A stretch of 64,000 bases of DNA from an uncultured Candidatus Saccharibacteria bacterium (GTDB lineage Bacteria; Patescibacteriota; Minisyncoccia; 2-02-FULL-40-12; GWA2-44-9). Below, piece by piece: positions 8,902-61,206 of the stretch (the stretch's first letter is position 1; each line of letters begins with the position of its first letter). The notes under the pieces are model-generated. The model was given only the letters and a program-made list of their open reading frames with translations, was not told the origin of the DNA and did no database searches. The stretch is from positions 8,090 through 72,089 of the forward strand of contig CAZENF010000002.1 in assembly GCA_964513645.1 (NCBI GenBank), given 5' to 3'. The translations under genes and the position numbers were made by a program.

Positions 8902-10992
8902 ATGAACCTCGTCATTGTCGAATCACCAACCAAAGCCAAAACCATTTCCCGCTTCCTGGGAGGAGATTTTGTCGTGAAATCATCCTACGGTCATGTCCGC
9001 GACTTACCCAAAAAAGAACTTGGCGTTGATACTGAACACGACTTTGAACCAAAGTATGTGATTCCGACCAAAGCCCGCAAAAATGTAACCGATCTTAAAA
9101 AAACGGCCGAGAAGTCTGACACGATAATTCTCGCAACTGACGAGGACCGCGAAGGCGAATCTATCTCCTGGCATTTGGTCAAAGCTCTCGGCTTGGATGG
9201 TTCGGGAACAAAAAAAACGACCGCCAAATTAAAAAATAAAGAACCAAAAAAAATAGAACGGATAGTCTTCCACGAAATAACCAAGTCCGCCATTGAACAT
9301 GCTTTGAAAAATCCCAGGACCATCGACCAAGACCTGGTTGATGCCCAGCAGGCCAGGCGCGTACTCGACCGCTTAGTAGGTTACAAACTCTCACCTTTTC
9401 TATGGAAAAAAGTGGCCAGAGGACTTTCAGCCGGACGCGTTCAATCAGTCGCGGTCAGATTAGTGGTTGAGAGGGAGCGGGAAATAGAAAAATTCAAAGC
9501 TGATGAATATTGGACCATAACCGCCAATTTATCGGCCGGTTCGGATGCCCAGAAAATATTTCCCGCAAATCTTATAAAGATAGGCGATAAATCTCTTGAA
9601 AAATTAGATATCAAAAACCAGGCAGAGGCCGATAAGATCGTAAAAGACCTCGAAAACGCAAAATATACGGTCCAAAATGTTGAACGGAACGAGGTCAGCC
9701 GCTCACCGATGTCGCCTTTTACAACCAGCACCCTCCAACAGGATGCGGCTAAAAAACTTCACTTCTCGGCAAAACAAACAATGATGTTCGCCCAGCAATT
9801 ATACGAAGGAGTTGAACTTGGTGCCGAAGGTTCTGTCGGTCTCATCACTTATATGAGAACTGATTCGGTCAATCTTTCCGAAGAGTCACTGACAAGAGCC
9901 AAAGATTTTATCACTAAAAGTTTCGGCGCTAATTATTTTGAACAAAGACGTTTTAAGACCAAATCAAAAACCGCCCAGGAAGCTCATGAAGCGGTCAGAC
10001 CGACCGAACCGGAACGCACACCGGACAGTGTCAGAACCTATCTTTCACCCCAGCAATTCAAACTTTACGAACTTATCTGGCGCCGTTTCACAGCTTCACA
10101 GATGACTAAAGCCGTATTTGATTCGACCGCGATCGATATTGCGACCAAGAATTATACTTTCCGGGCCAACGGCCAGACGATGAAATTCGATGGATTCCTC
10201 AAAGTTTATCCCGTTAAATACGAAGAAAATGAACTGCCGGTTGTAAAAGCCGGTGAGGAACTTGAGTTCAAAGAACTCAAACCGGAACAGCATTTCACCA
10301 AACCGCCAGCCAGATTCAACGAGGCTTCTATTATCAAAACTCTCGAAAAAGAAGGTATTGGCCGGCCGTCGACTTACGCTCCGATAATTTCTACTATCGT
10401 CGCCCGGAACTATGTGAACAAAGACCGTTCACGATACTTCCATCCGACCGAAATAGGCATCATGGTCAACGATCTTTTAGTTCAGCATTTCCCGAATATC
10501 GTCGATATAAAATTCACTTCAAAAATGGAAGGTCAGCTTGATGAGATAGCGGACGGAAAAATGAAATGGACCCCGGTCATCAGCGAATTCTATGGCCCGT
10601 TTGCCGAGAATTTGAAAGCTAAATATGAAGAAGTGTCTAAAGAAGAAGTGACCAAACAGGAAGACACCGGCCTACTTTGTGAAAAGTGCGGAAGTAAAAT
10701 GATAGTCAGAATGGGCCGCTATGGTAAGTTTATCGCCTGCTCCAACTTCCCGACCTGTAAAAATATATTAAAAGAAAAGAAAGAAGGAGCCGAACCGGAA
10801 AAGACCGGCGAGAAATGCGACAAATGCGGCGAAGGAGAGATGGTCATAAGAATAGGCCGATTCGGTAAGTTTATCGCCTGCAGTCGCTATCCTAAATGCA
10901 AAAATACAAAAAAGATACCCAAGAACCCCGAAGCATCTCCGGCTGAAGAACAAAAAAGCCCTCAAATTGAAAACGAACCGGCAAAAGAGTAG
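8902..10992 (+). CDS. topA: DNA topoisomerase I with C-terminal zinc ribbons
   Basis: A TOPRIM N-terminus MNLVIVESPTKAKTI and two C-terminal CxxC...CxxC zinc fingers. Confidence 0.92.
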   Translation: MNLVIVESPTKAKTISRFLGGDFVVKSSYGHVRDLPKKELGVDTEHDFEPKYVIPTKARKNVTDLKKTAEKSDTIILATDEDREGESISWHLVKALGLDGSGTKKTTAKLKNKEPKKIERIVFHEITKSAIEHALKNPRTIDQDLVDAQQARRVLDRLVGYKLSPFLWKKVARGLSAGRVQSVAVRLVVEREREIEKFKADEYWTITANLSAGSDAQKIFPANLIKIGDKSLEKLDIKNQAEADKIVKDLENAKYTVQNVERNEVSRSPMSPFTTSTLQQDAAKKLHFSAKQTMMFAQQLYEGVELGAEGSVGLITYMRTDSVNLSEESLTRAKDFITKSFGANYFEQRRFKTKSKTAQEAHEAVRPTEPERTPDSVRTYLSPQQFKLYELIWRRFTASQMTKAVFDSTAIDIATKNYTFRANGQTMKFDGFLKVYPVKYEENELPVVKAGEELEFKELKPEQHFTKPPARFNEASIIKTLEKEGIGRPSTYAPIISTIVARNYVNKDRSRYFHPTEIGIMVNDLLVQHFPNIVDIKFTSKMEGQLDEIADGKMKWTPVISEFYGPFAENLKAKYEEVSKEEVTKQEDTGLLCEKCGSKMIVRMGRYGKFIACSNFPTCKNILKEKKEGAEPEKTGEKCDKCGEGEMVIRIGRFGKFIACSRYPKCKNTKKIPKNPEASPAEEQKSPQIENEPAKE

Positions 10993-47970: not shown

Positions 47971-50900
47971 CTAATATGGCGCGACTTCACGCCACTGGGG
48001 CAGTTTCTGGCCGATATAGAGATTGTTTTGATAGGTACATGAACCAGCATTATCAGTTGCGGTCAAAGAAACAGGAAAAGAACCGTTACCCGTAAATACA
48101 ACGCTGTAAGGCCCTTGAGTCCCTGTACCGGCCGGTGTCGGTACACCGGTTCCAAAATTCCAACTCCATGTCTTTCCCGATGAACTAGGGGCAAATACGG
48201 TCGAATCGGTAAAAGTAACAGGCGAACCGGATACTGGACTTGCCGGACTATAAGTAAAGGCGGTTTGAGGAAATGCATGAACCGGAGTCGTCCAACTTGC
48301 CTGCGATGCCGGCGGATTTACGCCATTAATATATGTACTCATCTTAACCCATGGCGACCAAACTCCGCTTGAATTCTGAACTCTGCCCCAGGCGGTATAT
48401 GTCGTATTCCAGACCATCTGACATGTCGTCTGTGGGCGGGTATCGGTCGGATTTAAAGTTACATTCGTGGAATTGTTGACCGGACAATTCGAAGTACTGC
48501 TTGAAAAAGTAGAGCCGCTGGTTATCGCTACCGGCACAGTTCCAGACTCCCATTCAGGATTCATGCTTGCACTGGCAACATTCGGATCGCTGACCAAATC
48601 ATTATCAATCATTGCTTGATAATTGATAGCGTTGAGACTTCCCGGATCTGTATAGATTCCCGAGACGGTAGCATGGACACCGGCACTGCAATAATAACCA
48701 TTGTTAACAGTCACGGTCATATTTGAAACACTTGGAGTCGGCACCGCGACATTGACAGTTACCTGGTCGGTGGCAATTCCTGCCGATCCATTACATGATA
48801 AAGTGTAAGTCGTATTCGCTATCAGGTTTGCGGTCGCAAGTGAGGTATTAACTATCGGGCCGTTAATGAAGTACCACTTCTGATTTGACGGTCGCCAGAC
48901 CGCAACTTCGGCCTTGCCTTTACTGTGATAGTATCCAGGGACAGGAACATCACCCGGAATACCGAGTTTTAAATTATAAGAGGCGGTGTAATTGCTTTCC
49001 GAGGTATATATAAACCAGTCCCCGGTACTTGGACGATATACGGCCAGGTCGGCCTTGCCGTCGCCGGTATAGTCTGCAGGTACCGGAATATCGGTTGCGG
49101 TGGCTAAGGCCAAGGTATAGCTGAGGCCGGCAGTCCAATTGCTGTTTGAAGTAAGTACCCACCAGGTTGTACTGGAAGGACGCCAAACAGCCATATCCGT
49201 TTTCCCGTCTCCGGTATAGTCTGCCTGAACAGGAACATCACCGGTCGTACCCCATGCTCTTGTAAAATATGTCTTATTGTTGTCATCGGAATTTAAAACA
49301 TACCAATAACCGGTATCCGGCTGGCCTGCACCAGAACGCCAAACAGCTAAATCTGCTTTCCCGTCACCGGTATAATCGCCTGGAACTGCAAGATCAAAAG
49401 TGGGAGTAGCTCCAAGACCCCAGCTAATATAAGGAGAAGGTGGGACAAGAACTGTATACCAACTCGTATAATTACTTTCCGAGGTCAGAACATACCAAGG
49501 ACCAGAACCGCTTCGCCATTCGCCAATATCTGTTTTTCCGTCACCGGTAAAATCAGCCATAGTCGGAACATCATAATAAGGACTATAAGCCAAAGTGAAC
49601 GGTATCGGAGTAACGTCGGTAACACCGTTTGGCGGAGAATAATCTATCGTCCAGCCGGAAGTTGCACTGTTAAAAATTGCAAGGTCTGTCAAGCCATCCC
49701 CGTTAAAATCACCCGACAACGGTGAACCTATCGCAGCTTTAAGATTAAGAGTTGTCGAATCGACTATTTGCTCGGCTGATTCGGGACGGCCGCCGGCAAC
49801 GCCAAATTGAAGCGAATAGGACGCTGGCCCAGGAGAAATAGTGCAACTATCGACGCTCGAACAGTTTACTCCGGTAGTTCCGCACCATCTTAAATTAGTA
49901 GAAGTGCCGGAATTAACACTGCAAGGACCGTTTGAAAAAGCTCCTGCTCCATTCGACTGACAAGTTGCATCAGCTGTCGCAGCGTTGGCATTGATAGTTA
50001 TCGCTGTGTCTGTGGAGTTACCGCCTGGATCAACACAGGTCAGATAAAAAGTTTTGCTTGGAGTTGTTATCGGACCCGTGGAATAAGTTCCGGAAGTTTG
50101 TCCATTATATAATTTTGCACTAAGTATCATGGTTCCGGGATCATACAAAGAAGTATCCAGACCGAGCGGGTAAGTTGGCGGTACGGTGCTGGTATAAAGT
50201 AAATTTCCATTTTGATAATATTTAACGGTTCCAAACTCAACCGCCACTCGCAAAAGGTCTCCGGCTGTATACGCTGCCAAAGGTCCTGCTTTCAAACTCC
50301 CTCCTTCGAATATATACAGATTGCCATCGACGTTGGGATATATCCCGTAATCAATGTCAGTATAGCTTTGATTTGAATCGCCATTTCCAAGTCCGGCAAT
50401 TTTATATTTAGTGGTATCGCCGACCACAAACTCAACATAGCCATCCCCCGAGGATATGGTTTGAATTGAAGAAGCACCTGTATCCCAGGCAGCCACTCCA
50501 CCTGTTTTAGTTATGGAACTTGCACCCACAGTGATATTTGCTGACGGTAGAATATTTTGCCATTGAACATTTGCGGCAGTCGGAGATACAAGTCCTGTTC
50601 CGATGTGGACATTGGATAAAGTCGCTCCGATACTGTAGAAAGATGAATCGAACAACAAAGGATAGGTCGGGAGGTTGGGGCTTGTGAACAAAAGCATCCC
50701 GTTCTTAAAATATTTAACCACACCCTTCTGTATTGCAACCCTGAAAATATCGCCTGCAACATAAGTCCCGACCGCAGCCCCGCCGTTTTGGAAAGCTGCG
50801 TTCTCTATGATATAGACATGGCCGTCTCCAGCAGCATAGAGAGCATATTTCATCTCAACATAACTCGGCGTGGTATCACTCGAGCTAAACCCTCCCATTT

Positions 50901-52161
50901 TATAAGCAGTGTTCTCAACGGTAGTAAATTCGACATAGCCGTCGCCGGAAGCGATAGTCTGGGTAGATGAGGCGCCTGCATCCCAGACATTATTTGTACC
51001 TCCGGTTTTGGTCAAAGTATTCCCGGTCACCGTTAAGGCGGTTACGTTCTGCCAAGTCGCATTGGACGGCGCACTCGTTGCCAGAGCACAGTATTGGGAA
51101 TTGGGACAAGGATTAGAAGCACCTCCGCACCATCTCAAATTAGTAGAAGCTCCCGAATCAACCGTGCAAGGACCATTTGAATAAGCTCCGGCTCCATTAG
51201 ATTGGCAGGTAATATCAGCTACCGGCGCTGGAACCAAAAGATTAAAATTAGTCTGAAAATTTACCCAGCCGGAAGATAAAGTTGTTAGGCCATTATAGAG
51301 ATAACCGGAAATATCATTATCGATGACCGGGGTTGTGTAGGGCAACTGGAAACGGACGGTAAAAACCGTAGTTCTGCTGTTTCCTGAAACAGAAGTAGTA
51401 CAAGCATCGAGATGGATGTTGGCGTCGCCATAACCTGGCTGAACCGCCGCATGGCCGCCTCCGGTACAGGCCCGGTAATCCTGATAGCCGTTCCAAGCAT
51501 CTAAATAATACCAGGTCAAATATCCCCTGTATAAAGGAGCGTTCTCACCTTGAAGATTTATAAGAACATATTCATGAGTGATATTCGCGCTCCCGGTGGA
51601 ATCGGAGCCGGTAATCGTAATATTATACTGGGTCGTATTGTCGGTCGTAACCAAAGGAGAACTGATGGTAACATTGTCTACGGTTGGGGGAGGGGCGGCG
51701 TATGCGGCCTGGGCATAATAAGCTGCCTGCCCATAATAAGTCGACTGGGCGTAGTAGGATGATTGGGAATAGCCATACGTTCCTTGGGCATAAGGATATG
51801 TTGCTTCGGCATAAGGATATGTTCCTTGGGCATAAGGATATGTTGCTTCGGCATAAGGATATGCTGCTTCGGCATAAGTTATAATACAAGATTCAAAAGG
51901 CCCGCAAGCATAAGCAGGGGCCGCACATCCGCCGCACGAATAAGTCGTCCCATAACAAGGGTCGTCGTTTCTTGTAGCACAAGAAGTACACACGTCAGAA
52001 CTATAAACCGGGTTGTCTCCGCAAGGAGGATCGTTATTACCATGACATGTGTATCTTAAAAGACACACCATTGACGAAGCGTCTTTAACGCTTAAAGACA
52101 AGCTCAGAAATATAACAGCCACAGGAACTAAGACCAAAAAAACAGCATACCGATGTTTCAT
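47971..52161 (-). CDS. Giant secreted protein of 1396 aa with a Cys-rich N-domain, Tyr-rich tandem repeats, a duplicated module and six FG-GAP/VCBS-like repeats
   Basis: N-terminal transmembrane/signal segment. A Cys-rich block DDPCYGTTYSCGGCAAPAYACGPFESC. YPYAEAT x5 and YYAQ-type repeats. A CQSNGAGAxSNGPCxVxSGxSTNLRWCG module occurs twice. Repeats DFNGDGLTDLAIF, DFTGDGKTDIGEWR, DYTGDGKADLAVWR, DYTGDGKTDMAVWRP and DYTGDGKADLAVYRP follow. Confidence 0.7.
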   Translation of the reverse strand: MKHRYAVFLVLVPVAVIFLSLSLSVKDASSMVCLLRYTCHGNNDPPCGDNPVYSSDVCTSCATRNDDPCYGTTYSCGGCAAPAYACGPFESCIITYAEAAYPYAEATYPYAQGTYPYAEATYPYAQGTYGYSQSSYYAQSTYYGQAAYYAQAAYAAPPPTVDNVTISSPLVTTDNTTQYNITITGSDSTGSANITHEYVLINLQGENAPLYRGYLTWYYLDAWNGYQDYRACTGGGHAAVQPGYGDANIHLDACTTSVSGNSRTTVFTVRFQLPYTTPVIDNDISGYLYNGLTTLSSGWVNFQTNFNLLVPAPVADITCQSNGAGAYSNGPCTVDSGASTNLRWCGGASNPCPNSQYCALATSAPSNATWQNVTALTVTGNTLTKTGGTNNVWDAGASSTQTIASGDGYVEFTTVENTAYKMGGFSSSDTTPSYVEMKYALYAAGDGHVYIIENAAFQNGGAAVGTYVAGDIFRVAIQKGVVKYFKNGMLLFTSPNLPTYPLLFDSSFYSIGATLSNVHIGTGLVSPTAANVQWQNILPSANITVGASSITKTGGVAAWDTGASSIQTISSGDGYVEFVVGDTTKYKIAGLGNGDSNQSYTDIDYGIYPNVDGNLYIFEGGSLKAGPLAAYTAGDLLRVAVEFGTVKYYQNGNLLYTSTVPPTYPLGLDTSLYDPGTMILSAKLYNGQTSGTYSTGPITTPSKTFYLTCVDPGGNSTDTAITINANAATADATCQSNGAGAFSNGPCSVNSGTSTNLRWCGTTGVNCSSVDSCTISPGPASYSLQFGVAGGRPESAEQIVDSTTLNLKAAIGSPLSGDFNGDGLTDLAIFNSATSGWTIDYSPPNGVTDVTPIPFTLAYSPYYDVPTMADFTGDGKTDIGEWRSGSGPWYVLTSESNYTSWYTVLVPPSPYISWGLGATPTFDLAVPGDYTGDGKADLAVWRSGAGQPDTGYWYVLNSDDNNKTYFTRAWGTTGDVPVQADYTGDGKTDMAVWRPSSTTWWVLTSNSNWTAGLSYTLALATATDIPVPADYTGDGKADLAVYRPSTGDWFIYTSESNYTASYNLKLGIPGDVPVPGYYHSKGKAEVAVWRPSNQKWYFINGPIVNTSLATANLIANTTYTLSCNGSAGIATDQVTVNVAVPTPSVSNMTVTVNNGYYCSAGVHATVSGIYTDPGSLNAINYQAMIDNDLVSDPNVASASMNPEWESGTVPVAITSGSTFSSSTSNCPVNNSTNVTLNPTDTRPQTTCQMVWNTTYTAWGRVQNSSGVWSPWVKMSTYINGVNPPASQASWTTPVHAFPQTAFTYSPASPVSGSPVTFTDSTVFAPSSSGKTWSWNFGTGVPTPAGTGTQGPYSVVFTGNGSFPVSLTATDNAGSCTYQNNLYIGQKLPQWREVAPY

Positions 52162-52682
52162 TGAATTGAGACTAATAATATTTTTACTTTAATATTGTCT
52201 TTTGTTGTCTGCTCCATCTCTATTCTACCCTGGTAAATTACGCCTTGAATTTCTATGATGGCAGATCTTTCATCCCTGATGCCGCCCAACAATTTCCAGT
52301 CGTTGGAGTAAAGCACTTTAAAATAATCGAAATACGGTTGAGGAAGATTGCTTTTGATATCGAAATTAAATTCGTATCCATTTTTACCATTTTCGTATTG
52401 TACTTCTCTGGCTTGAAAGTTAGTGGCATTATTTGGTTTTAAAAAATTAAGTTCTGTCTGGAACGTGGCCGCACTTTTTTCTGACGCAATCGGAGGAATA
52501 ACAAGCTTTCCTGCATAACCGGAAATATTGAGTGATAAATTAGTATCCGGACTGGGAGCAGGTGTAGCCGAATTTACCAATAAATGACTGTCTTGTTTCT
52601 GGGTCTCGTACTTTGAGATCATAAAAAAAACCGAGGCCGCCAAAATCATCAAACCGAATATAATACCTTTTTTATCATTCAT
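52158..52682 (-). CDS. N-terminally membrane-anchored partner protein of 174 aa, paralogue of 54749..55279
   Basis: It overlaps the upstream giant gene by 4 nt. Its KPNNATNFQAREVQYENGKNGYEFNF compares with KINGATNLRISKVNYINGKQGYTDSF in the 176-aa paralogue. Confidence 0.5.
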   Translation of the reverse strand: MNDKKGIIFGLMILAASVFFMISKYETQKQDSHLLVNSATPAPSPDTNLSLNISGYAGKLVIPPIASEKSAATFQTELNFLKPNNATNFQAREVQYENGKNGYEFNFDIKSNLPQPYFDYFKVLYSNDWKLLGGIRDERSAIIEIQGVIYQGRIEMEQTTKDNIKVKILLVSIQ

Positions 52683-53411: not shown

Positions 53412-54752
53412 TCAAGGTATCGGCGGCCTCTGGCCTCTAAGAATGGAGTCGACGAGGTAGACGAAACCTTTGCCGATAAGGACGATTATAAACCCGATAA
53501 GAGCCCAGAAGAGGATATTCTTGGCCTTTTGGATCTCACCAGGGTTACCTCTCGAAAAGACGAACCTTATGCCGGCGTATAGGATAAGGATGACTATTAA
53601 TGAACCTGCGATGTTTAATATCCAATTGGAGATGAGGGTTATTAGTCCAAAGATATCATAAGGCTGGCCGTAGAGAGGATTTACTATCCTCCAGGGGATG
53701 CTGACGGGTTGGCCGGGGTTGATAGGGCCCGGACCATTATTACAAGCACTGCTACCTGTCTGGCAAATGGTAACATTGGCGGACTGGGTTATGGTATAGT
53801 CGGGCCACAAAGCCCCCCCGTCACATTCTATCTTTGCGTAGTAATATTTAGTCCCGGTCGATTGGGGAGGATAAAAAGTAAAATTAGCACTTTCGTTTAA
53901 GTTCACTAATTGTTGAGTATTATCGAAATTAGCTACCCGCCGATAAATGAGAGGAACACCATTATCGTCAAAAATTGACCACAAAACATCTGTTGGCGGA
54001 TTACCAAAGGTGCTGTTGCACTTACCCCAGTCTATCAGTAAGGCCGGATAGACGTTTATACCGACTGTGGCATTTAGATTATCTCCGGAATTAGCTTGTT
54101 TTGGTTGAATATCAAATGTGACATCGACTCCAGGAATGGCTTGTGGGTTGGGAGTTGAGGTGGGGGGAATAGGCGTTGGGGTGGTATATGTTGCTTGAGC
54201 ATAATAGGCTGATTGGGCATAGTAGGATGATTGAGAATAGCCCGGGCCATATGATGCTTGGGCATAGTAGGCAGCTTGGGCATAGTAGGCAGCTTGGGCA
54301 TAGTAGGCAGCTTGGGCATAGTAAGTCGATTGACCGTAGTATGCGGACTGGCCATAATAGGATGACTGACCGTAGTATGTTGATTGGGCATAGTAAGATG
54401 CCTGACTATAGTAAGACGCTTGAGCATAGTAGCTTGACTCTGAATAATACGCCGCCTCTGAATACGCGGCAACGCAACTATAAAAAGGTCCACAGGATCT
54501 TCCGGCTGAACATCCACCGCAGGTATAGGTTGCACCGCCACAGGGATCATCTGTTCTTTGAACGCATGTCCCGCTGCAAGCTGACATGACCGGACAATCA
54601 CCACAAAAACCGGTTCCAGGCCCGCAGTTAGGAGAACATTGGTAGCCAGTAATGCAGGAGGTCTGGGCAGAAACATACCCGCTAAAATACAAAAACGCCA
54701 GGATTACCAAGATAAAGGTTAAGATCGTTGTGAAAAGATATTTTTGTCTCAT
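53412..54752 (-). CDS. Secreted Cys-rich / Tyr-repeat protein with a C-terminal two-helix hairpin resembling VirB2/TrbC-type pilins
   Basis: The N-terminal domain is paralogous to the 1396-aa protein (DDPCGGATYTCGGCSAGRSCGPFYSC). It carries (S/A)YYAQ x~14 repeats. The C-terminus GLITLISNWILNIAGSLIVILILYAGIRFVFSRGNPGEIQKAKNILFWALIGFIIVLIG has two transmembrane helices separated by a short charged loop. Confidence 0.55.
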   Translation of the reverse strand: MRQKYLFTTILTFILVILAFLYFSGYVSAQTSCITGYQCSPNCGPGTGFCGDCPVMSACSGTCVQRTDDPCGGATYTCGGCSAGRSCGPFYSCVAAYSEAAYYSESSYYAQASYYSQASYYAQSTYYGQSSYYGQSAYYGQSTYYAQAAYYAQAAYYAQAAYYAQASYGPGYSQSSYYAQSAYYAQATYTTPTPIPPTSTPNPQAIPGVDVTFDIQPKQANSGDNLNATVGINVYPALLIDWGKCNSTFGNPPTDVLWSIFDDNGVPLIYRRVANFDNTQQLVNLNESANFTFYPPQSTGTKYYYAKIECDGGALWPDYTITQSANVTICQTGSSACNNGPGPINPGQPVSIPWRIVNPLYGQPYDIFGLITLISNWILNIAGSLIVILILYAGIRFVFSRGNPGEIQKAKNILFWALIGFIIVLIGKGFVYLVDSILRGQRPPIP

Positions 54753-55279
54753 GGAAGGGTCACAATATATATATCGATATCAACCTTGCCGTTTCCTTTG
54801 GGATAAAATACGATCCGGCTTTGATAATTAAAAGTTTTTAGATCGATAACGGACAAAGCGTTGTTGTGGGCCGCATACACAACCTGCCAATCCTGATTAG
54901 AATTAAATTTTAAAGAATATTCGGAAAAGACATTTTCCATTGACCGGCCTACTTCAAAAGAATCAGTATAACCTTGTTTACCATTGATATAATTAACTTT
55001 GCTAATGCGGAGATTCGTTGCACCGTTAATTTTAAAAATATTAAAAACTGGGGGTAATGAATTTACTCCTGTTCGAGAAGCGACTCTCGGAAAGTCTATA
55101 TTGTCACCGAGTACGGAATTTCTCACACCGGAAACGGAGGGCAACGGTGATTTAGGCCCAATTTTGTCGGAATTCGTTTGGGTCCTACTCTTGATTATAA
55201 TGAGATACGAGGACCCTAAAGCCATGATTATAATAAACGTGCTTATTATAATAGTTTTCTTGGAGGCCATACTATTCAA
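54749..55279 (-). CDS. Membrane-anchored partner protein of 176 aa, paralogue of 52158..52682
   Basis: A 4-nt overlap with the upstream gene, an N-terminal transmembrane segment, and colinear similarity to the 174-aa protein. Confidence 0.5.
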   Translation of the reverse strand: MNSMASKKTIIISTFIIIMALGSSYLIIIKSRTQTNSDKIGPKSPLPSVSGVRNSVLGDNIDFPRVASRTGVNSLPPVFNIFKINGATNLRISKVNYINGKQGYTDSFEVGRSMENVFSEYSLKFNSNQDWQVVYAAHNNALSVIDLKTFNYQSRIVFYPKGNGKVDIDIYIVTLP

Positions 55280-55328: not shown

Positions 55329-56528
55329 CTACTTAAAACATTTTGTTTTCCAGGGTTCGGGTAAGGCGTTGCACATATTGATGAAATCCGAAGAGCCCTG
55401 ATGAAAATTATATTTTGAATAGAAAAGGAGTTCATTGTAACAAGTGTCCCCCACTCCGAACTCCTCGGCTGCCCGGCAAAAGGCAACCGATTTATCTATA
55501 AGCCGGTAGTCCGTTTCTATGAACCTGGAGGCCGAATCGGCAAAACATTGGCCTTTGATATTCTGGGGTAAAGCCCGACATAGAGTTTCAATTGTCGGCT
55601 GGTCAAAATTCACCTGAACCGGTATCACAAAGAACATTGCACTCAAACATCTGTTCTTTAAATTTTGGTCCCGGGTAAAGGAACAAAATTTGACCAGGCC
55701 GTCCGGAGTTAATATCTGACTACGTGATAGCGGCCAGGATTCATTGTGGCATGAGGCCGCAGGAATACTTGAGAACTTGTCGCACAACTTAAAAGCCGCC
55801 GCCGGTGTGTGGGGAGCGATATTTTTCACCAAAGCAAAATCTTCATCTTCAAGCGGTTGGAATATTTGCATAAAATTCCCGTCGTAACATACCTGAAGAA
55901 AATTGCGTCCGTCCGGTTTAACCGCGACTTTCTGGCAAAGGTCATTGGACTTTTTAGCATCCGCTTCGGTAATATACATCAGAAGATGTCCCAATGCATG
56001 GTAACAACTGGCCTGCTCCATTCCGGTCGGATGCCAATTCTGTCTTTCTTCACAGACCCCCTGAAGTTGGGGCAAAATGCTGTTTATTTGACTGTCATCA
56101 AGCGCCTCCGTCCTGAATCTCTCCTGAAAAGCCCCGTGGATACAGCCATTAGAACAGAGCCCGCTCGGACACTCGGTCACAACATCCGCCCATTTCGAAG
56201 GATCTTTTTTTGTTTCCCGCGCACTTAAGTTATGACCCAGAACATGACAGAACACATAACTTTTGTCCTCGTCCTGAACAAGTCTGGTAACCTGAAAAGC
56301 ATCTTGCATTGAAATATAGTCCATCAGTTTCGGTATCTCGGTGTCATAGCAGGTCGGTTTATAAGATTCTTTGGAACACTTAACCACGATCTGGTCGGCA
56401 TATTCCTGAAGGGTTTTGACAGATCCGGTTTTAGAGATCTTAAAAAAATAAATACCGTAAGCCGAGGCCGCTCCGACAAGGATTATAAATAGAGAAAGGT
56501 AAAAAGTTTTGGATGAAAAAAGTTTCAT
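55329..56528 (-). CDS. Secreted Cys/His-rich protein, paralogue family member 1
   Basis: An N-terminal transmembrane segment, FCHVLGHNL and CYHALGHLL motifs, and about 22 Cys. Confidence 0.5.
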   Translation of the reverse strand: MKLFSSKTFYLSLFIILVGAASAYGIYFFKISKTGSVKTLQEYADQIVVKCSKESYKPTCYDTEIPKLMDYISMQDAFQVTRLVQDEDKSYVFCHVLGHNLSARETKKDPSKWADVVTECPSGLCSNGCIHGAFQERFRTEALDDSQINSILPQLQGVCEERQNWHPTGMEQASCYHALGHLLMYITEADAKKSNDLCQKVAVKPDGRNFLQVCYDGNFMQIFQPLEDEDFALVKNIAPHTPAAAFKLCDKFSSIPAASCHNESWPLSRSQILTPDGLVKFCSFTRDQNLKNRCLSAMFFVIPVQVNFDQPTIETLCRALPQNIKGQCFADSASRFIETDYRLIDKSVAFCRAAEEFGVGDTCYNELLFYSKYNFHQGSSDFINMCNALPEPWKTKCFK

Positions 56529-56532
56529 AAAT

Positions 56533-58032
56533 TTATTGACCGGAACAGAATTTTTGATAATCTTTGTCGACCGATGAACAGATCTCGGTCCTCTTTTGAG
56601 AATTGTACCAAATGCTCAACCTCGTCAAAATATATCTGTAACACTCGTTTCGTTCATCGTCCTTAAGTTCGGGCCGTTTACAAAATGCCAAACCCTTAAC
56701 ATATTCTTTGCCAGGTTCTCCGTATTTCATGTGTCCGCCGGCCAATCCTTCTACACACGGCAGTCTTAGGTCACCAGAAACAGAGTGGCATAAATTTATT
56801 CCATCCAAAATATCAAAATCCTGGCTACGAGTATGCAATCTTATGTATTCATGGAACAAACTTACCGCGGTCATTTCCTTAACCGTGTAGCCGAAGAGCT
56901 CGAGATTTTCCTTATCACCATCAGAAGGAATTGTTTCGATCTTTTTTACTTCTTCTTTAAAATTCTCACGATAAAGAATTTCAATTGCCGGAAGCATATT
57001 GGTATAGCAAGCTTCCTTGTTGTTTATCGGCTGGGTTTTACAGAAAGAAAAAGGGTCTTTAGCCAACTCATCTAATTGATATTTATCATTGTGAGACAGG
57101 ATCTCAATAGAGTTATAGGCCCCGGAAATGCAGCGGTACCTTTCCATCGGATTGCTTGCCACGCCATCACATATCTTCAATCCGGGTTTGATCATTTTTT
57201 CAGGGTCTCCCCAGGCCTCGGTATCGTCGCCATCCACTGTCCCGTGGCCTATTCCATGAAAACACGCTCCCCCGGCATCGGAGGTTTGTCCGCTTAGTTG
57301 TTTTTGGGCATAATCACAAAATTCTTTGGCCTTGGACGGGTCTCCGGTTTTTTTCAAAAGCGCTTCCATAAAACCATGATAAAAACCATAAGCGCAGTAT
57401 GATGTCTTGGGGCTTAATTTGATATCTTGATGTTGAGAAAATCTTTCATAAGCCGCCTGACCGAGACGATGAACAAAACCGTGGCAGTTGGCGGCAAAAT
57501 ACGGGTCAGACTCGTAAAGCTGGGCTAATTGCTGGAAAGCAACGTCAAGACCTTTGGTTTCGAGGGTGTTGTCCAAGGAATCTTCCCAGCATTGGATCTT
57601 GTCGTTTTGTTGAGGATCATTGCAGTTAATTTTTACGGCCGAACCGTTACGGTCGAGAACATTTATCACTCCTCTTGAAGAAGGATCTAAGTGGTTATGA
57701 AATTTCCAGCTGCCGATCCTATCAAATTTAAAACTCCATGATTTATCGGGGTCTACCGGGTGCTTCGGGTCAAATTCAGGATAAATGTCGTGTGTCGGAT
57801 GCGGATCGGAAGCAGGCCAGAATGCTTGGTCTAATTGGGTCGTAAAGATTACAGTATCTCCCTGGTTGATGGTCAATGTTGAAGGGAAAAAACCGTCTTT
57901 GGTCATAGAAACGGTATAATTTTTGGAATTAGCAGGAAAATATTTATAAAAAAATCCAAAAACATAAATGAGAGTTAAGAAAAGAACCAAGACGATTATT
58001 TTAAGCTTCGTGTTTTGTAAAATTTTTATCAA
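56533..58032 (-). CDS. Secreted protein with a cupredoxin-like N-domain plus a Cys/His-rich domain, paralogue family member 2
   Basis: N-terminal transmembrane segment. TINQGDTVIFTT...WPASDPHPTHDIYPEF...SWSFKF..GSWKFHNHLDP is a cupredoxin/EfeO-like beta-sandwich pattern. It also carries CHGFVHRLG and CFHGIGHG. Confidence 0.5.
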   Translation of the reverse strand: MIKILQNTKLKIIVLVLFLTLIYVFGFFYKYFPANSKNYTVSMTKDGFFPSTLTINQGDTVIFTTQLDQAFWPASDPHPTHDIYPEFDPKHPVDPDKSWSFKFDRIGSWKFHNHLDPSSRGVINVLDRNGSAVKINCNDPQQNDKIQCWEDSLDNTLETKGLDVAFQQLAQLYESDPYFAANCHGFVHRLGQAAYERFSQHQDIKLSPKTSYCAYGFYHGFMEALLKKTGDPSKAKEFCDYAQKQLSGQTSDAGGACFHGIGHGTVDGDDTEAWGDPEKMIKPGLKICDGVASNPMERYRCISGAYNSIEILSHNDKYQLDELAKDPFSFCKTQPINNKEACYTNMLPAIEILYRENFKEEVKKIETIPSDGDKENLELFGYTVKEMTAVSLFHEYIRLHTRSQDFDILDGINLCHSVSGDLRLPCVEGLAGGHMKYGEPGKEYVKGLAFCKRPELKDDERNECYRYILTRLSIWYNSQKRTEICSSVDKDYQKFCSGQ

Positions 58033-58047
58033 AGATGTGATGATTTT

Positions 58048-59484
58048 TTATTTTACCGGGGCACATTTCTTATTATATTTAACATCGATCTGAGAACAAA
58101 TATATTTTTGTTTCTCTGCTGGGTAAATGTTGCTTTCCTGCCAGATCAAATTATTATAACAAGCGATTTTTTGTTCTTCGGTAAGAAGAGGGTTAGCGCA
58201 AAACGCTAAGGGCTTGGTATATTCCAGATCAGGCGTACCAACCTCGATCAAACCCTCAATGTATCCTTCAATACACGGGGTGACCAGTCTTTTCTGAAGA
58301 GATTGGCAAACTTTTACCTGTTTTGAATAATCAGCCAGGTCCCACCCCGATTGTCCGTTAACATCCGACAAACTTCTCATGGTAGAAATGGCGTATTCAT
58401 CCTCTTTTATTGCTTCGACAAATTTAATAGCTTTTAAGAAATCGGAGTTGCTTATCGCCATTAGGTACGTGTTCATCTCCTCATAGCAAGTCAGTTTGGC
58501 ATAATCTTTTTCTAAGCTCCGACAATAAAAAAGAGGGTCGGACTCGTTCTTGCGCAACTTTCCTTGATTATATGCAATTGCCATTGCATTGAACACTCCG
58601 CTTCCGCAGCGGTTAAGCATCTGGGGGTTAGGCGCAACCTTTTCGCACAAGGCCAGAGCAGGCATCACGACCGATCTTTCATTCGGCCAATCATTGTCAT
58701 CATCAACCGCGCCATGACCGATACCATGATAACATTTCCCCAAAGTATCAGCACTTACATTTTTCATCTTATCGTAGGCATAATTACAAAAATCCCTTGC
58801 CACACTCAAGTCATTAGTTTCATGAAGAAGAGTTTGCATAAAGCCGTGATAAAATCCGAAACTGCAATAAGAAACTTTTTCCGGTAAGGTAAAGTTTTTG
58901 TGTTCAGAAAATAAATAATACGCTTTTTCTCCCAACTTATGGACCAAGCCGTGGCAGTAGTATTTAAAATCCGGGTCATTGTTATATGAGTCCGAGATCA
59001 TATTAAATGTTCCTTCCAATCCTTTGCTCTCAATAATAGAATCGATGTTGGTGTCCCAGCATTGAGCCCTATTTTCCTCCGAAACATGTACGCAATCAAC
59101 ATAAGGAATCTTACCGTCAGAGCCACGAACTTTGACTATCCCCTGGTAGTAAGGATCGAGGTGGTCATGGAATTTCCAATTACCGGCTTTATCGAACTTA
59201 AAGCTCCAAGATTTATCAGAGTCTATCGGACGTTTGGGATCAAATTCCGGGTACAAGGTGTGGGTCGGATGGATATCCGAAGCCGGCCAGAATGGTTTCG
59301 TAAGTCGGGTAGTGAAAACTACCATGTCGCCCTGGTTAATAGTTATGTTTGAGGGTGAAAAGCCGTCTTTGGTTAGAGAAATGTAGTAAGTGGCTGGCGA
59401 CTGATGGATAAAAAATTTAAACAGGTAAAAAGCCCCTAAAACAGCACAAAAAAGAATGAGAAGTAAGATCAGACGGTATTTCAT
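58048..59484 (-). CDS. Secreted protein with a cupredoxin-like N-domain plus a Cys/His-rich domain, paralogue family member 3
   Basis: Colinear with the 499-aa paralogue: ITINQGDMVVFTT...WPASDIHPTHTLYPEF, CHGLVHKLG and CYHGIGHG. Confidence 0.5.
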   Translation of the reverse strand: MKYRLILLLILFCAVLGAFYLFKFFIHQSPATYYISLTKDGFSPSNITINQGDMVVFTTRLTKPFWPASDIHPTHTLYPEFDPKRPIDSDKSWSFKFDKAGNWKFHDHLDPYYQGIVKVRGSDGKIPYVDCVHVSEENRAQCWDTNIDSIIESKGLEGTFNMISDSYNNDPDFKYYCHGLVHKLGEKAYYLFSEHKNFTLPEKVSYCSFGFYHGFMQTLLHETNDLSVARDFCNYAYDKMKNVSADTLGKCYHGIGHGAVDDDNDWPNERSVVMPALALCEKVAPNPQMLNRCGSGVFNAMAIAYNQGKLRKNESDPLFYCRSLEKDYAKLTCYEEMNTYLMAISNSDFLKAIKFVEAIKEDEYAISTMRSLSDVNGQSGWDLADYSKQVKVCQSLQKRLVTPCIEGYIEGLIEVGTPDLEYTKPLAFCANPLLTEEQKIACYNNLIWQESNIYPAEKQKYICSQIDVKYNKKCAPVK

Positions 59485-59493
59485 CGACGATAA

Positions 59494-60699
59494 TTATCCC
59501 ACCCTTAATACTTTTTTGCATTCGGCCTTGTGAATTTCAGGCACCGTAGAACAAAATGACTTATAGTATCCGGGGTCTTTGATATAGTAGCTGACCATTC
59601 CAAAGAGATCTTCAAAACAAGGGTACTGGTAAACCTGGTCCGAAATAGAATTGCAAAACCTTATTGCACCGTCCGGCTTATTCTCCCCTCCCCAGTATAG
59701 AGAGGCGGTCGAATTTTCAATGCACGCCTGTGTTCCGTTCTTGTCATTTGCCAAAAGGCACCAAGCATAAACTTTCTGAAATTGTTCGGTTGTCATATCT
59801 GCAACATTTCTGATGTCCCGGTTCTGAGCCAGGACAATGAACTCTTTGCCAAATCCTCCGTAGCAAATATTCCGGTTTGGATCCGATAGCGGTAATTTAG
59901 AACAATACTGAAATGCTTTTGAGAAATCAGCCGGGCCGGGATGATTAATATCCGCTCCGGCAAATTCGAAAAGATACGGCGTTAAATAGGTATAGCACAT
60001 TAATTTCGCCCCGGAAGGGATTAAGTCCGTATCGCAGGGGGTCAGAGCATCATTCTTGGTAAAGTATATCTTTCTCTGACGCCCCCATGCGATCTTGTCG
60101 TGGAATCCCCCGCTTATCATCTCCATTATCGAACCTCCGACACATTGCGGATATTCCTGATAATTATATTCCGGCGTACCGGTCTTTTGGCACATCTCCA
60201 CCGTTTTTTTAAGGTCGTAATCCAGATACGCCAGGATACCATGACCAAGTCCGTGGAAACACATGGTATAGGCACCTGACCCCCCCGGAGCATGTCTGCA
60301 GGCATCAGAGATTGCGTCAAGAGCACTTTCGCCCTTATCAAAAAAGAGTCCAACCACGATAGAGTGCGAACAGGCGTTCCTGAAATCTTGGGTACATTTA
60401 TAAATACCTTTCAAACCTTCTTTTTTATACAAAACATCGCCGATCGCATGACCAAGGAGATGGAAGTCCGTATTCGGAGGCAAGTCAGCGGTTTTTAAAA
60501 CCTCAAAAGCATATTCAGGACTTTTTTGATTTGCGAGGTCCTCAAAATATTTTTTAAGCTCACTGAAAGACTGGGAATGTTTTTTCACGTCCTGAAGTTC
60601 TGGATAAGATGTTTTCTTAGAAGAGTAAGACCATACTAAAAGACCTGCCACCAGAACCAATAAAAAAAGACCTGAAAATATTTTATAAGACAGTTTCAT
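59494..60699 (-). CDS. Secreted Cys/His-rich protein, paralogue family member 4
   Basis: An N-terminal transmembrane segment with FHLLGHAIG and CFHGLGHG. Confidence 0.5.
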   Translation of the reverse strand: MKLSYKIFSGLFLLVLVAGLLVWSYSSKKTSYPELQDVKKHSQSFSELKKYFEDLANQKSPEYAFEVLKTADLPPNTDFHLLGHAIGDVLYKKEGLKGIYKCTQDFRNACSHSIVVGLFFDKGESALDAISDACRHAPGGSGAYTMCFHGLGHGILAYLDYDLKKTVEMCQKTGTPEYNYQEYPQCVGGSIMEMISGGFHDKIAWGRQRKIYFTKNDALTPCDTDLIPSGAKLMCYTYLTPYLFEFAGADINHPGPADFSKAFQYCSKLPLSDPNRNICYGGFGKEFIVLAQNRDIRNVADMTTEQFQKVYAWCLLANDKNGTQACIENSTASLYWGGENKPDGAIRFCNSISDQVYQYPCFEDLFGMVSYYIKDPGYYKSFCSTVPEIHKAECKKVLRVG

Positions 60700-60723: not shown

Positions 60724-61206
60724 TTATTTGGAACTTCGTGGTTTAGGGATCGATTTTGGCGTTCCGTTGAAGAAAACAGGGGCTGTATAACGGATCTCGG
60801 CCGCGGTGAATTTTTTAGTTCCCGTTATATTATCCGTAGCAATTATAACAACATTTGAATTGTTCGGATTATAGAGATCGGCAAGACTACCTTCTAAAGA
60901 ACCGGATTTCAAATTAGTCGGCGTATATTTACCATCTGGAGGAGGTATCAAGGTTATTTTTACAAATTTGGTATTGGAATTTGTTATAACCGATACCACT
61001 TCAGTTGGACCATAGGATTTGCCGTCAATCATGACCGTACCAGCAACAGATAGTTGAGTTTCGGTTATTCCGGCTATTTTACCCCTAAATTCAGAACTTT
61101 TTATATTGTCATTTTTAGACGGGAGACCTTTTGCAAAAAGTAAAACGACTGCGATCAGAAAGATCATTATCGCTATACTTGTCCCTTTCCGGCGTCGGGT
61201 ATGCAT
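60724..61206 (-). CDS. Hypothetical secreted protein
   Basis: An N-terminal transmembrane anchor followed by an S/T/N-rich domain. Confidence 0.4.
   Translation of the reverse strand: MHTRRRKGTSIAIMIFLIAVVLLFAKGLPSKNDNIKSSEFRGKIAGITETQLSVAGTVMIDGKSYGPTEVVSVITNSNTKFVKITLIPPPDGKYTPTNLKSGSLEGSLADLYNPNNSNVVIIATDNITGTKKFTAAEIRYTAPVFFNGTPKSIPKPRSSK

Follow-up and report, generated by a model that had tools for sequence, protein, structure and literature searches.

Tandem arrays of Cys/His-rich, membrane-anchored proteins in Patescibacteria: a new helical family linked to an atypical cupredoxin

Introduction

In multicopper oxidases (MCO) and NirK, the histidines that flank the type-1 cysteine ligate type-2 or trinuclear copper at the interface between domains or subunits. 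Type-3 copper proteins (tyrosinase and hemocyanin, H-x3-H...H), S100/calprotectin and the H-x3-H sites of APP-E2 use i/i+4 His pairs on adjacent helices together with further His, and the Helicobacter cysteine-rich proteins (Hcp) and other Sel1-like repeat (SLR) proteins are secreted alpha/alpha repeats with a cross-link between two Cys in every hairpin. The proteins discussed here touch on all of these systems. They are encoded by four adjacent genes, A to D, in a 64,000-nucleotide (nt) stretch of DNA (the window) assigned to an uncultured Candidatus Saccharibacteria bacterium (GCA_964513645.1, contig CAZENF010000002.1, positions 8,090 to 72,089), and each protein joins a transmembrane (TM) anchor to a helical domain rich in His and Cys, while B and C carry a cupredoxin domain between the two. 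Among the closest known counterparts of that cupredoxin are the Cys-less "Cup-II" cupredoxins (PF13473, the Cup domain of EfeO, and FtrB), of which FtrB binds Cu2+ and oxidizes Fe2+ (PMC11966278).

Judged by sequence and model comparison, the helical domain represents a new protein family, for which no relative of known function could be detected. Its conserved histidines probably cluster, and it is linked to a genuine but atypical cupredoxin both by gene fusion and by gene neighborhood. The Patescibacteria (candidate phyla radiation, CPR) make up a large share of bacterial diversity, but for most of the surface proteins that are conserved in them and specific to their lineages no function is known. 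The family described here is abundant (at 50% identity it forms at least 6,800 clusters), ancient (at least four orthologous subfamilies kept together) and costly (up to ~2% of a 721-kb genome), and its five His plus disulfides form an unusually sharp signature. Should a metal centre indeed operate with a Cys-free cupredoxin, it would imply that organisms regarded as minimal in their metabolism carry out metal or redox chemistry outside the cell, would give bioinorganic chemistry a new metal-binding fold, and would provide a testable handle on how episymbionts handle oxygen, metals or hosts; database labels such as "plastocyanin" on some members would be corrected.

The four-gene array

Genes A, B, C and D are co-directional on the minus strand and are separated by gaps of 9, 15 and 4 nt, an operon-like layout headed by A, a member of the most conserved subfamily. 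B and C share 39% identity (E 1e-134 in pairwise comparison), and A and D have 20-25% identity to one another and to B/C, with E values of 2e-7 for A and D, 6e-5 for C and D, and 2e-4 for A and C. A profile built from A orthologues alone, run against the 153 open reading frames (ORFs) of the window, detects D (E 3.7e-15) and C (E 9.6e-8). The genes had been described as four tandem paralogues in an earlier, sequence-only reading of the window, and the ORFs together with the pairwise and profile significance bear this out: A to D are divergent paralogues whose likeness is far above chance. The features of the array are as follows.

60699..59494, minus strand: gene A, 401 amino acids (aa), subfamily A; TM anchor and helical His/Cys domain
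60448..60462, minus strand: A motif 1, HLLGH (H80, H84); both His invariant in the cross-family alignment
60238..60261, minus strand: A motif 2, CFHGLGHG (C147, H149, H153); from the sequence and the cross-family alignment
59484..58048, minus strand: gene B, 478 aa; TM anchor, cupredoxin domain and helical His/Cys domain
59122..59388, minus strand: B cupredoxin domain, WPASDIHPTH (H72, H75) and WKFHDH (H106, H108); homologous to the modelled C domain
58930..58956, minus strand: B motif 1, CHGLVHKLG
58711..58734, minus strand: B motif 2, CYHGIGHG
58032..56533, minus strand: gene C, 499 aa, TTG start; TM anchor, cupredoxin domain and helical His/Cys domain
57655..57921, minus strand: C cupredoxin domain, residues 38-126; invariant H78, H81, H112 and H114, no Cys
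57460..57486, minus strand: C motif 1, CHGFVHRLG (H184, H188)
57241..57264, minus strand: C motif 2, CFHGIGHG (H259, H263)
56528..55329, minus strand: gene D, 399 aa, subfamily D; TM anchor and helical His/Cys domain, 20 Cys
56223..56249, minus strand: D motif 1, CHVLGHNLS
55983..56006, minus strand: D motif 2, CYHALGHL

A hydrophobic helix stands at the start of each protein, as the sequence-only reading had noted, and the two His motifs that it quoted for each of them are exact. Its figure of about 20 Cys each captured the Cys-rich character of the proteins and was slightly high, the totals being 16 in A, 17 in B (one of them inside the TM helix), 16 in C and 20 in D, with an even number in every ectodomain. 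The extracellular location that it proposed is supported, since the TM anchor and the paired Cys both agree with an extracytoplasmic domain. The public annotation of gene C (P0001, 457 aa) begins at an internal Met (residue 43) and so omits the TM helix; the upstream TTG start is favored here because homologues are 480-500 aa long and because of the paralogue B.

Fold and conservation of the helical domain

AlphaFold2 (AF2) models of C and A were built from 40-sequence alignments. The model of C (predicted local distance difference test, pLDDT, 89.5; predicted template modelling score, pTM, 0.82) has a TM helix at residues 3-31, followed by a beta domain of eight strands (38-126) and a part that is wholly helical (142-495), and that of A (pLDDT 92.8, pTM 0.86) has a TM helix at 2-27 and the all-helical domain. 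Most helical-domain Cys are paired at a spacing of 8-18 residues, the first close to where a helix ends and the second about six residues into the following helix, which is the pattern expected of one putative disulfide per helix hairpin.

Conservation is concentrated in these Cys and in a few His. A cross-subfamily alignment of 32 sequences, with ~20% identity between subfamilies, contains 19 invariant positions, namely four His (two H-x3-H), 13 Cys and two Gly. When 906 domains were excised from all collected sequences, 828 were usable; all four motif His are retained in 818 of these, and the Cys pair flanking motif 2 is invariant save for one gap. A further His position, overlooked in the sequence-only reading, lies on the helix between the motifs and is present in 824 of the 828 domains, in the context C-x-H in A (H112) and [YI]-H-G in the other three proteins (H219 of C). 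The rare His losses co-occur. The features that define the family, comprising the TM helix, H-x3-H, the single His, C-x-H-x3-H, at least six conserved Cys pairs and a profile match, are all present in A to D. Subfamily A has additional invariant polar and Gly-rich stretches, DFRNACSHS, APGGSGAY, GGFGKEF, RDIR and WGGEN.

The His motifs had not been recognized as a named domain, and database searches agree: Pfam and NCBIfam searches of the four window proteins returned a sub-threshold Cupredoxin_1 match alone, and the helical domain matched neither collection, nor Pfam when 32 family members were searched. Sequence searches of the PDB with a single sequence and two profiles gave nothing meaningful (noise such as caspase-7, E 0.04), Foldseek found no match at E<=1e-3, and structure comparison of the helical domain recovered only generic alpha-solenoids. 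Self-comparison for internal repeats yielded only weak signals, with probabilities of 66% or lower apart from a 75% match between overlapping segments. No description of a helical His/Cys family was found in the literature on cupredoxins and Patescibacteria or on CPR protein families. With SLR proteins and Hcp, A to D may share the pattern of Cys-paired hairpins (pairs 8-18 residues apart), several pairs of which are also coupled in the covariation analysis described below, but the helical domain has neither a Sel1 repeat profile match nor an SLR-type fold.

Spatial arrangement of the conserved histidines

The relative placement of the conserved His was examined by covariation in place of model distances, using mean-field direct coupling analysis (DCA) of the 828 domains (effective number of sequences, Neff, about 770). 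DCA recovers the antiparallel hairpins predicted by AF2 and couples the Cys pairs C137-C148, C239-C257, C288-C301, C331-C342, C415-C426 and C485-C496 (numbering of C); the pairing of C183 with C213 is ambiguous. The helices carrying motif 1 and motif 2 emerge as parallel, in-register neighbors, with couplings 185-252, 189-255 and 195-256 as well as H184-H259 and H188-H263, and the ladder of couplings runs on into the next repeats (257-301, 260-303 and 263-307). The helix carrying the fifth His packs onto the layer of motif helices, at a place that DCA leaves ambiguous. In A, the secondary structure assigned by DSSP to the AF2 model is one long helix where DCA points to a hairpin.

Covariation and co-conservation together support the view that the His residues are clustered, and an all-histidine transition-metal site would be the most economical explanation of them. 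At the level of the motif, such a site would resemble those of type-3 copper proteins, S100/calprotectin and APP-E2, with which the helical domain shares no detected similarity of sequence or fold. Type-3 copper proteins hold six His on a four-helix bundle, whereas five His are conserved here; we take the all-His helical metal sites as a lead and not as evidence of membership in any of these groups.

An atypical cupredoxin domain in B and C

The sequence-only reading had also pointed to an N-terminal beta segment in the 499- and 478-aa proteins (TINQGD..FWPASD.HPTH..YPEFDP..SWSFKF..WKFH.H), which is present as described, and had called it cupredoxin- or EfeO-like. The first term stands: the N-terminal domains of B and C are Greek-key beta-sandwiches superposable on known cupredoxins, and they belong to the cupredoxin fold. 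Likeness to EfeO is limited to that fold. EfeO has a Cup domain followed by an M75/imelysin domain with HxxE, whereas the partner domain in B and C is not M75/imelysin, so that these proteins fall outside the EfeO family, and neither an Ftr1/EfeU permease nor a DyP peroxidase was seen among the conserved neighbors of related loci. Nor is the site a classical copper site. The Cup-II proteins remain among the closest known systems, although B and C score below the Pfam cut-off for that family, and in place of the Asp/His pair proposed for FtrB they have four invariant His (HPxH and H-D/N-H).

Across 40 sequences the domain contains no Cys, and the residues W72-P-A-S75, H78, P79, H81, F87, D88, H112 and H114 (numbering of C) are invariant. 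The H78 loop is the sole segment of the C model with pLDDT below 50, as expected of an empty metal loop. A profile of the domain matches NirK-type MCO (E 3.8e-7) and amicyanin (E 1e-5), and in the HMMER alignments its Y-H-(D/N)-H falls opposite Y-H-C-H in MCO/NirK domain 1 and opposite Y-H-C-T in amicyanin, which argues that the type-1 Cys has been replaced by Asp or Asn while the two flanking His have been kept. MCO/NirK domain 1 is the best profile match, and G.W.[YF]H.H of B/C aligns with its copper motif ..YHCH/WYHSH. MCO and NirK nevertheless have at least two cupredoxin domains, four H-x-H motifs and an H-C-H link, whereas B and C have a single domain with H-x-x-H first and then H-x-H and are not members of that group. 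The partner motifs of MCO/NirK domains 2 and 3 are likewise missing in B and C, where the partner would be the helical domain or another subunit.

A type-1 blue-copper site of the classical kind was considered and rejected, its Cys being replaced by Asp or Asn and its Met/His loop being missing. Compared with plastocyanin and amicyanin, B and C have no Cys, second His or Met ligand, and their beta7-beta8 loop is reduced to about two residues; in the amicyanin alignment, Asp or Asn stands at Cys92 and non-ligands stand at His95 and Met98, which places B and C outside the blue-copper proteins. Judged from these alignments, the domain is a cupredoxin without a blue site that retains a conserved four-His constellation at the copper end, and these His resemble the type-2/trinuclear ligands of MCO/NirK domain 1.

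Size and taxonomic range of the family

Word-index searches returned 548 relatives of C (about 480-500 aa), 1099 of A (50-59% identity) and 755 of D (50-60% identity). The relatives are unnamed or labelled "hypothetical," "cupredoxin domain-containing" or "plastocyanin"; those of A are all unnamed or "hypothetical." Named relatives come nearly all from Patescibacteria lineages. When the representatives of 1.84 billion clusters (50% identity) were searched with a profile, 6,811 matched at E<=1e-3 and 5,302 at E<=1e-10. Among the GTDB species genomes, 80 loci were recovered, all in small metagenome-assembled genomes (MAGs), whose lineages are Kaiser-, Nomura-, Yanofsky-, Adler-, Sung-, Colwell-, Specht-, Doudna- and Daviesbacteria or similar. 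The family is thus very large, restricted to Patescibacteria, uncharacterized and ancient. Some array-bearing MAGs are labelled Nanoarchaeia, Gammaproteobacteria or Bacteroidetes (L008, L016, L017, L021), and many "uncultured Candidatus Saccharibacteria"; these are probably mislabelled Patescibacteria bins.

Several relatives are giants with two to seven tandem helical domains, including P0361 (3580 aa), P0362, P0364-P0366, P0370, P0456 and P0504. Fusions were each seen in a single case, the partner being GH3 with LRV/HEAT repeats, FG-GAP repeats, a Wzy_C O-antigen-ligase membrane domain at the N-terminus, or a cupredoxin at the C-terminus.

Related arrays and their conserved neighbors

A subfamily-A alignment was used to find related loci, and genes within 10 kb on either side of the A gene were counted at 79 independent loci. 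The family genes number five per locus at the median and 11 at most, with at least three in 71 of the loci, and they form same-strand runs with tiny gaps or overlaps. Subfamily A is found at 78 loci, D at 65, E (a subfamily that the window lacks) at 62, C at 53 and B at 24; A, E, D and B/C are found side by side in tandem arrays again and again, most often with A as the first gene.

At 60 of the 79 loci the same cupredoxin is encoded as well, whether fused or separate. It includes 41 stand-alone, TM-anchored cupredoxins of 125-185 aa (L059, L050, L049, L064 and others), located inside or beside the arrays, whose signature FWPAS.HP.H...[FY]HDH is identical to that of the fused domain. In one complete genome of 721 kb (L059), ten family genes and a stand-alone cupredoxin lie in a row of ~13.7 kb, or 1.9% of the genome. 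One subgroup of the stand-alone cupredoxins has an inserted C-x-x-S-S-F-D-x-C loop.

An Ig-like protein of 180 aa is present at 34 of the 79 loci, usually adjoining the cupredoxin genes (e.g., L050 17698..18240 and L004 18271..18813); the window holds no copy. Its signal peptide ends in A-x-A, and the mature protein begins with an invariant His, which is followed seven residues on by an invariant Glu; an Ig-like body and a C-terminal TM helix complete it. It matches no Pfam family, giving only weak Ig-like hits. The signal peptide, the first-residue His, the beta-sandwich and the C-terminal TM helix are shared with histidine-brace proteins of the YcnI/CopC type, and by this analogy it could be a histidine-brace copper protein, although Pfam detects neither DUF1775 nor CopC in it.

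At one locus (L004), an ArsR-family (HTH_5) regulator at 9068..9448 on the minus strand lies divergently upstream of the array; beside it is a 170-aa cupredoxin-like protein that does have Cys. In a Yanofskybacteria array (L001, 6397..9461), a Fic-domain gene has apparently truncated a cupredoxin-fused gene, of which a 100-aa fragment is left, and toxin-antitoxin-like genes (DUF6922/AbiEii, Polbeta NTase/HepT) follow the next paralogue; the arrays thus seem tolerant of insertion.

Possible functions of the arrays

We favor, with a confidence that leaves the matter evenly poised, an extracytoplasmic all-His metal site, probably of copper, that works with a type-2-like cupredoxin in a multi-paralogue surface assembly. 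Each protein would be held in the membrane by its single N-terminal helix and would expose an all-alpha domain of ~350 aa outside the cell; a Cys pair would staple each of the helix hairpins in this domain, giving perhaps 8-10 disulfides in all. Three neighboring helices bearing the five near-invariant His (H-x3-H, the single H, and C-x-H-x3-H) would form the transition-metal site. In B and C, a cupredoxin of MCO/NirK lineage is inserted between anchor and helical domain, and its four His (HPxH and HxH) would make a type-2-like site that may need a partner for completion. The occurrence of the same cupredoxin as a separate small anchored protein inside arrays argues that the two modules work together, and the recurrence in tandem of distinct, individually conserved subfamilies probably reflects a hetero-oligomeric surface assembly rather than simple redundancy. 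The subfamilies probably come together as a metalloprotein on the cell surface, which would bind copper and take it through redox cycles, whether as an oxidase or as a relay that handles copper. Three features make copper the best candidate: the descent of the partner domain from MCO/NirK, the lack of conserved carboxylates and the neighbor with an N-terminal His.

Several observations weigh against this reading. A and D lack a cupredoxin and no stand-alone copy lies within the window; over the 79 loci there are about three helical domains per cupredoxin, so that the His cluster must work without a dedicated cupredoxin. The conserved neighbors of the related loci included no copper transporter and no known cuproenzyme. 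A site of five His that lacks a conserved carboxylate would suit Zn, Ni or Mn as well, and the many subfamily-specific polar and Gly-rich positions could belong to enzyme pockets or to specific interfaces, which plain metal carriers would not need. Most such organisms are held to be fermenters with little redox metabolism. The Pfam Cupredoxin_1 scores of B (16.1 bits) and C (15.0 bits) lie under the gathering cut-off of 27 bits for PF13473; all eight fused homologues searched, however, match Cupredoxin_1 at E<=1 (best E 1.3e-7) and three of the eight match Cu-oxidase_3 (best E 6.6e-5), indicating that the relationship is real and that the window copies B and C are divergent.

Metal capture or sequestration without redox is one alternative, in which the helical domains would be high-affinity extracellular binders of Zn, Mn, Ni or Cu that scavenge or buffer metal for a minimal-genome cell, using their H-x3-H pairs as in S100/calprotectin or APP E2, with the cupredoxin and the N-terminal-His proteins as further binding modules. 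Four or more ancient, separately conserved subfamilies are hard to explain by buffering, however, and the cupredoxin descends from redox enzymes. An all-His site kept in 99% of domains, the extracytoplasmic location, the many copies per genome and the Cys-free cupredoxin with its four His would all suit such a role. An ArsR-family regulator adjoins one array, but no transporter is conserved in the neighborhood of related loci, and we consider sequestration unlikely. The same grade of unlikelihood attaches to a structural or adhesive scaffold, that is, disulfide-stapled alpha-solenoids that build an envelope or host-contact apparatus and in which the His cluster merely stabilizes the fold or mediates assembly. 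Such a role would leave the tight linkage to a metal-type cupredoxin unexplained, and purely structural proteins rarely hold five His and flanking Gly invariant at ~20% identity. It would agree with a fold that resembles generic alpha-solenoids alone, with the giants of two to seven domain copies and the fusions to FG-GAP repeats and, once, to GH3 with LRV/HEAT, and with the up to 1.9% of a 721-kb genome devoted to the family. It would further agree with the position of the window array, which adjoins a T4SS (type IV secretion system)-pilin-like protein and an FG-GAP/PKD surface protein with Tyr-rich repeats of a kind found in 20 loci.

The many invariant polar and Gly-rich stretches of subfamily A beyond the His cluster raise another option, a hydrolase, lyase or transferase with polymers of the envelope or of the host as substrates, in which the solenoid groove would bind glycan or peptidoglycan and the His would be catalytic with or without a metal. 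Occasional fusions to Wzy_C, GH3 and, in precomputed annotation, GT2 point the same way, but they are single cases; no acidic residue is conserved across subfamilies, and there is no likeness to any CAZy-type or peptidase fold or Pfam family. This is the least probable of the explanations considered. The most far-reaching form of the copper hypothesis, which we regard as quite unlikely, would give the helical domain a previously undescribed all-His centre that holds one copper or several. A trinuclear-cluster-like site with eight to nine ligands would then arise in the fused proteins from the four His of the MCO-type cupredoxin together with the four or five His of the two H-x3-H helices, and the array would encode a hetero-oligomeric copper oxidase or electron conduit at the surface of organisms believed to live by fermentation alone.

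Genomic surroundings of the window array

The array lies directly downstream of the glycyl-tRNA synthetase gene and one small ORF. The latter (60724..61206, minus strand), between glyS and gene A, encodes a TM-anchored protein of 160 aa with no Cys or His and no Pfam match, and it was not found as a conserved neighbor at related loci. Housekeeping genes fill the remainder of the window (topoisomerase I, RelA/SpoT, DnaE, ThrRS, GatB, GyrB, IMPDH, PheRS, SHMT and PGK), which argues that the array belongs to the core chromosome and not to a mobile element.

Just downstream of the array, also on the minus strand, are genes for two surface proteins (53412..54752 and 47971..52161), each with a Cys-rich N-terminal segment followed by long Tyr-rich repeats (AYYAQ / YPYAQGTYPY). 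The smaller, of 446 aa, ends in a T4SS_pilin domain (PF18895, E 3.7e-9), and the larger, of 1396 aa, contains FG-GAP and PKD domains; Tyr-rich repeat proteins of similar kind occur in 20 related loci. Two TM-anchored paralogues of 176 aa (54749..55279, minus strand) and 174 aa (52158..52682, minus strand), which share 25% identity (E 3e-15) and have no Pfam match, each lie immediately upstream of one Tyr-repeat gene, so that the region appears as a duplicated two-gene module.

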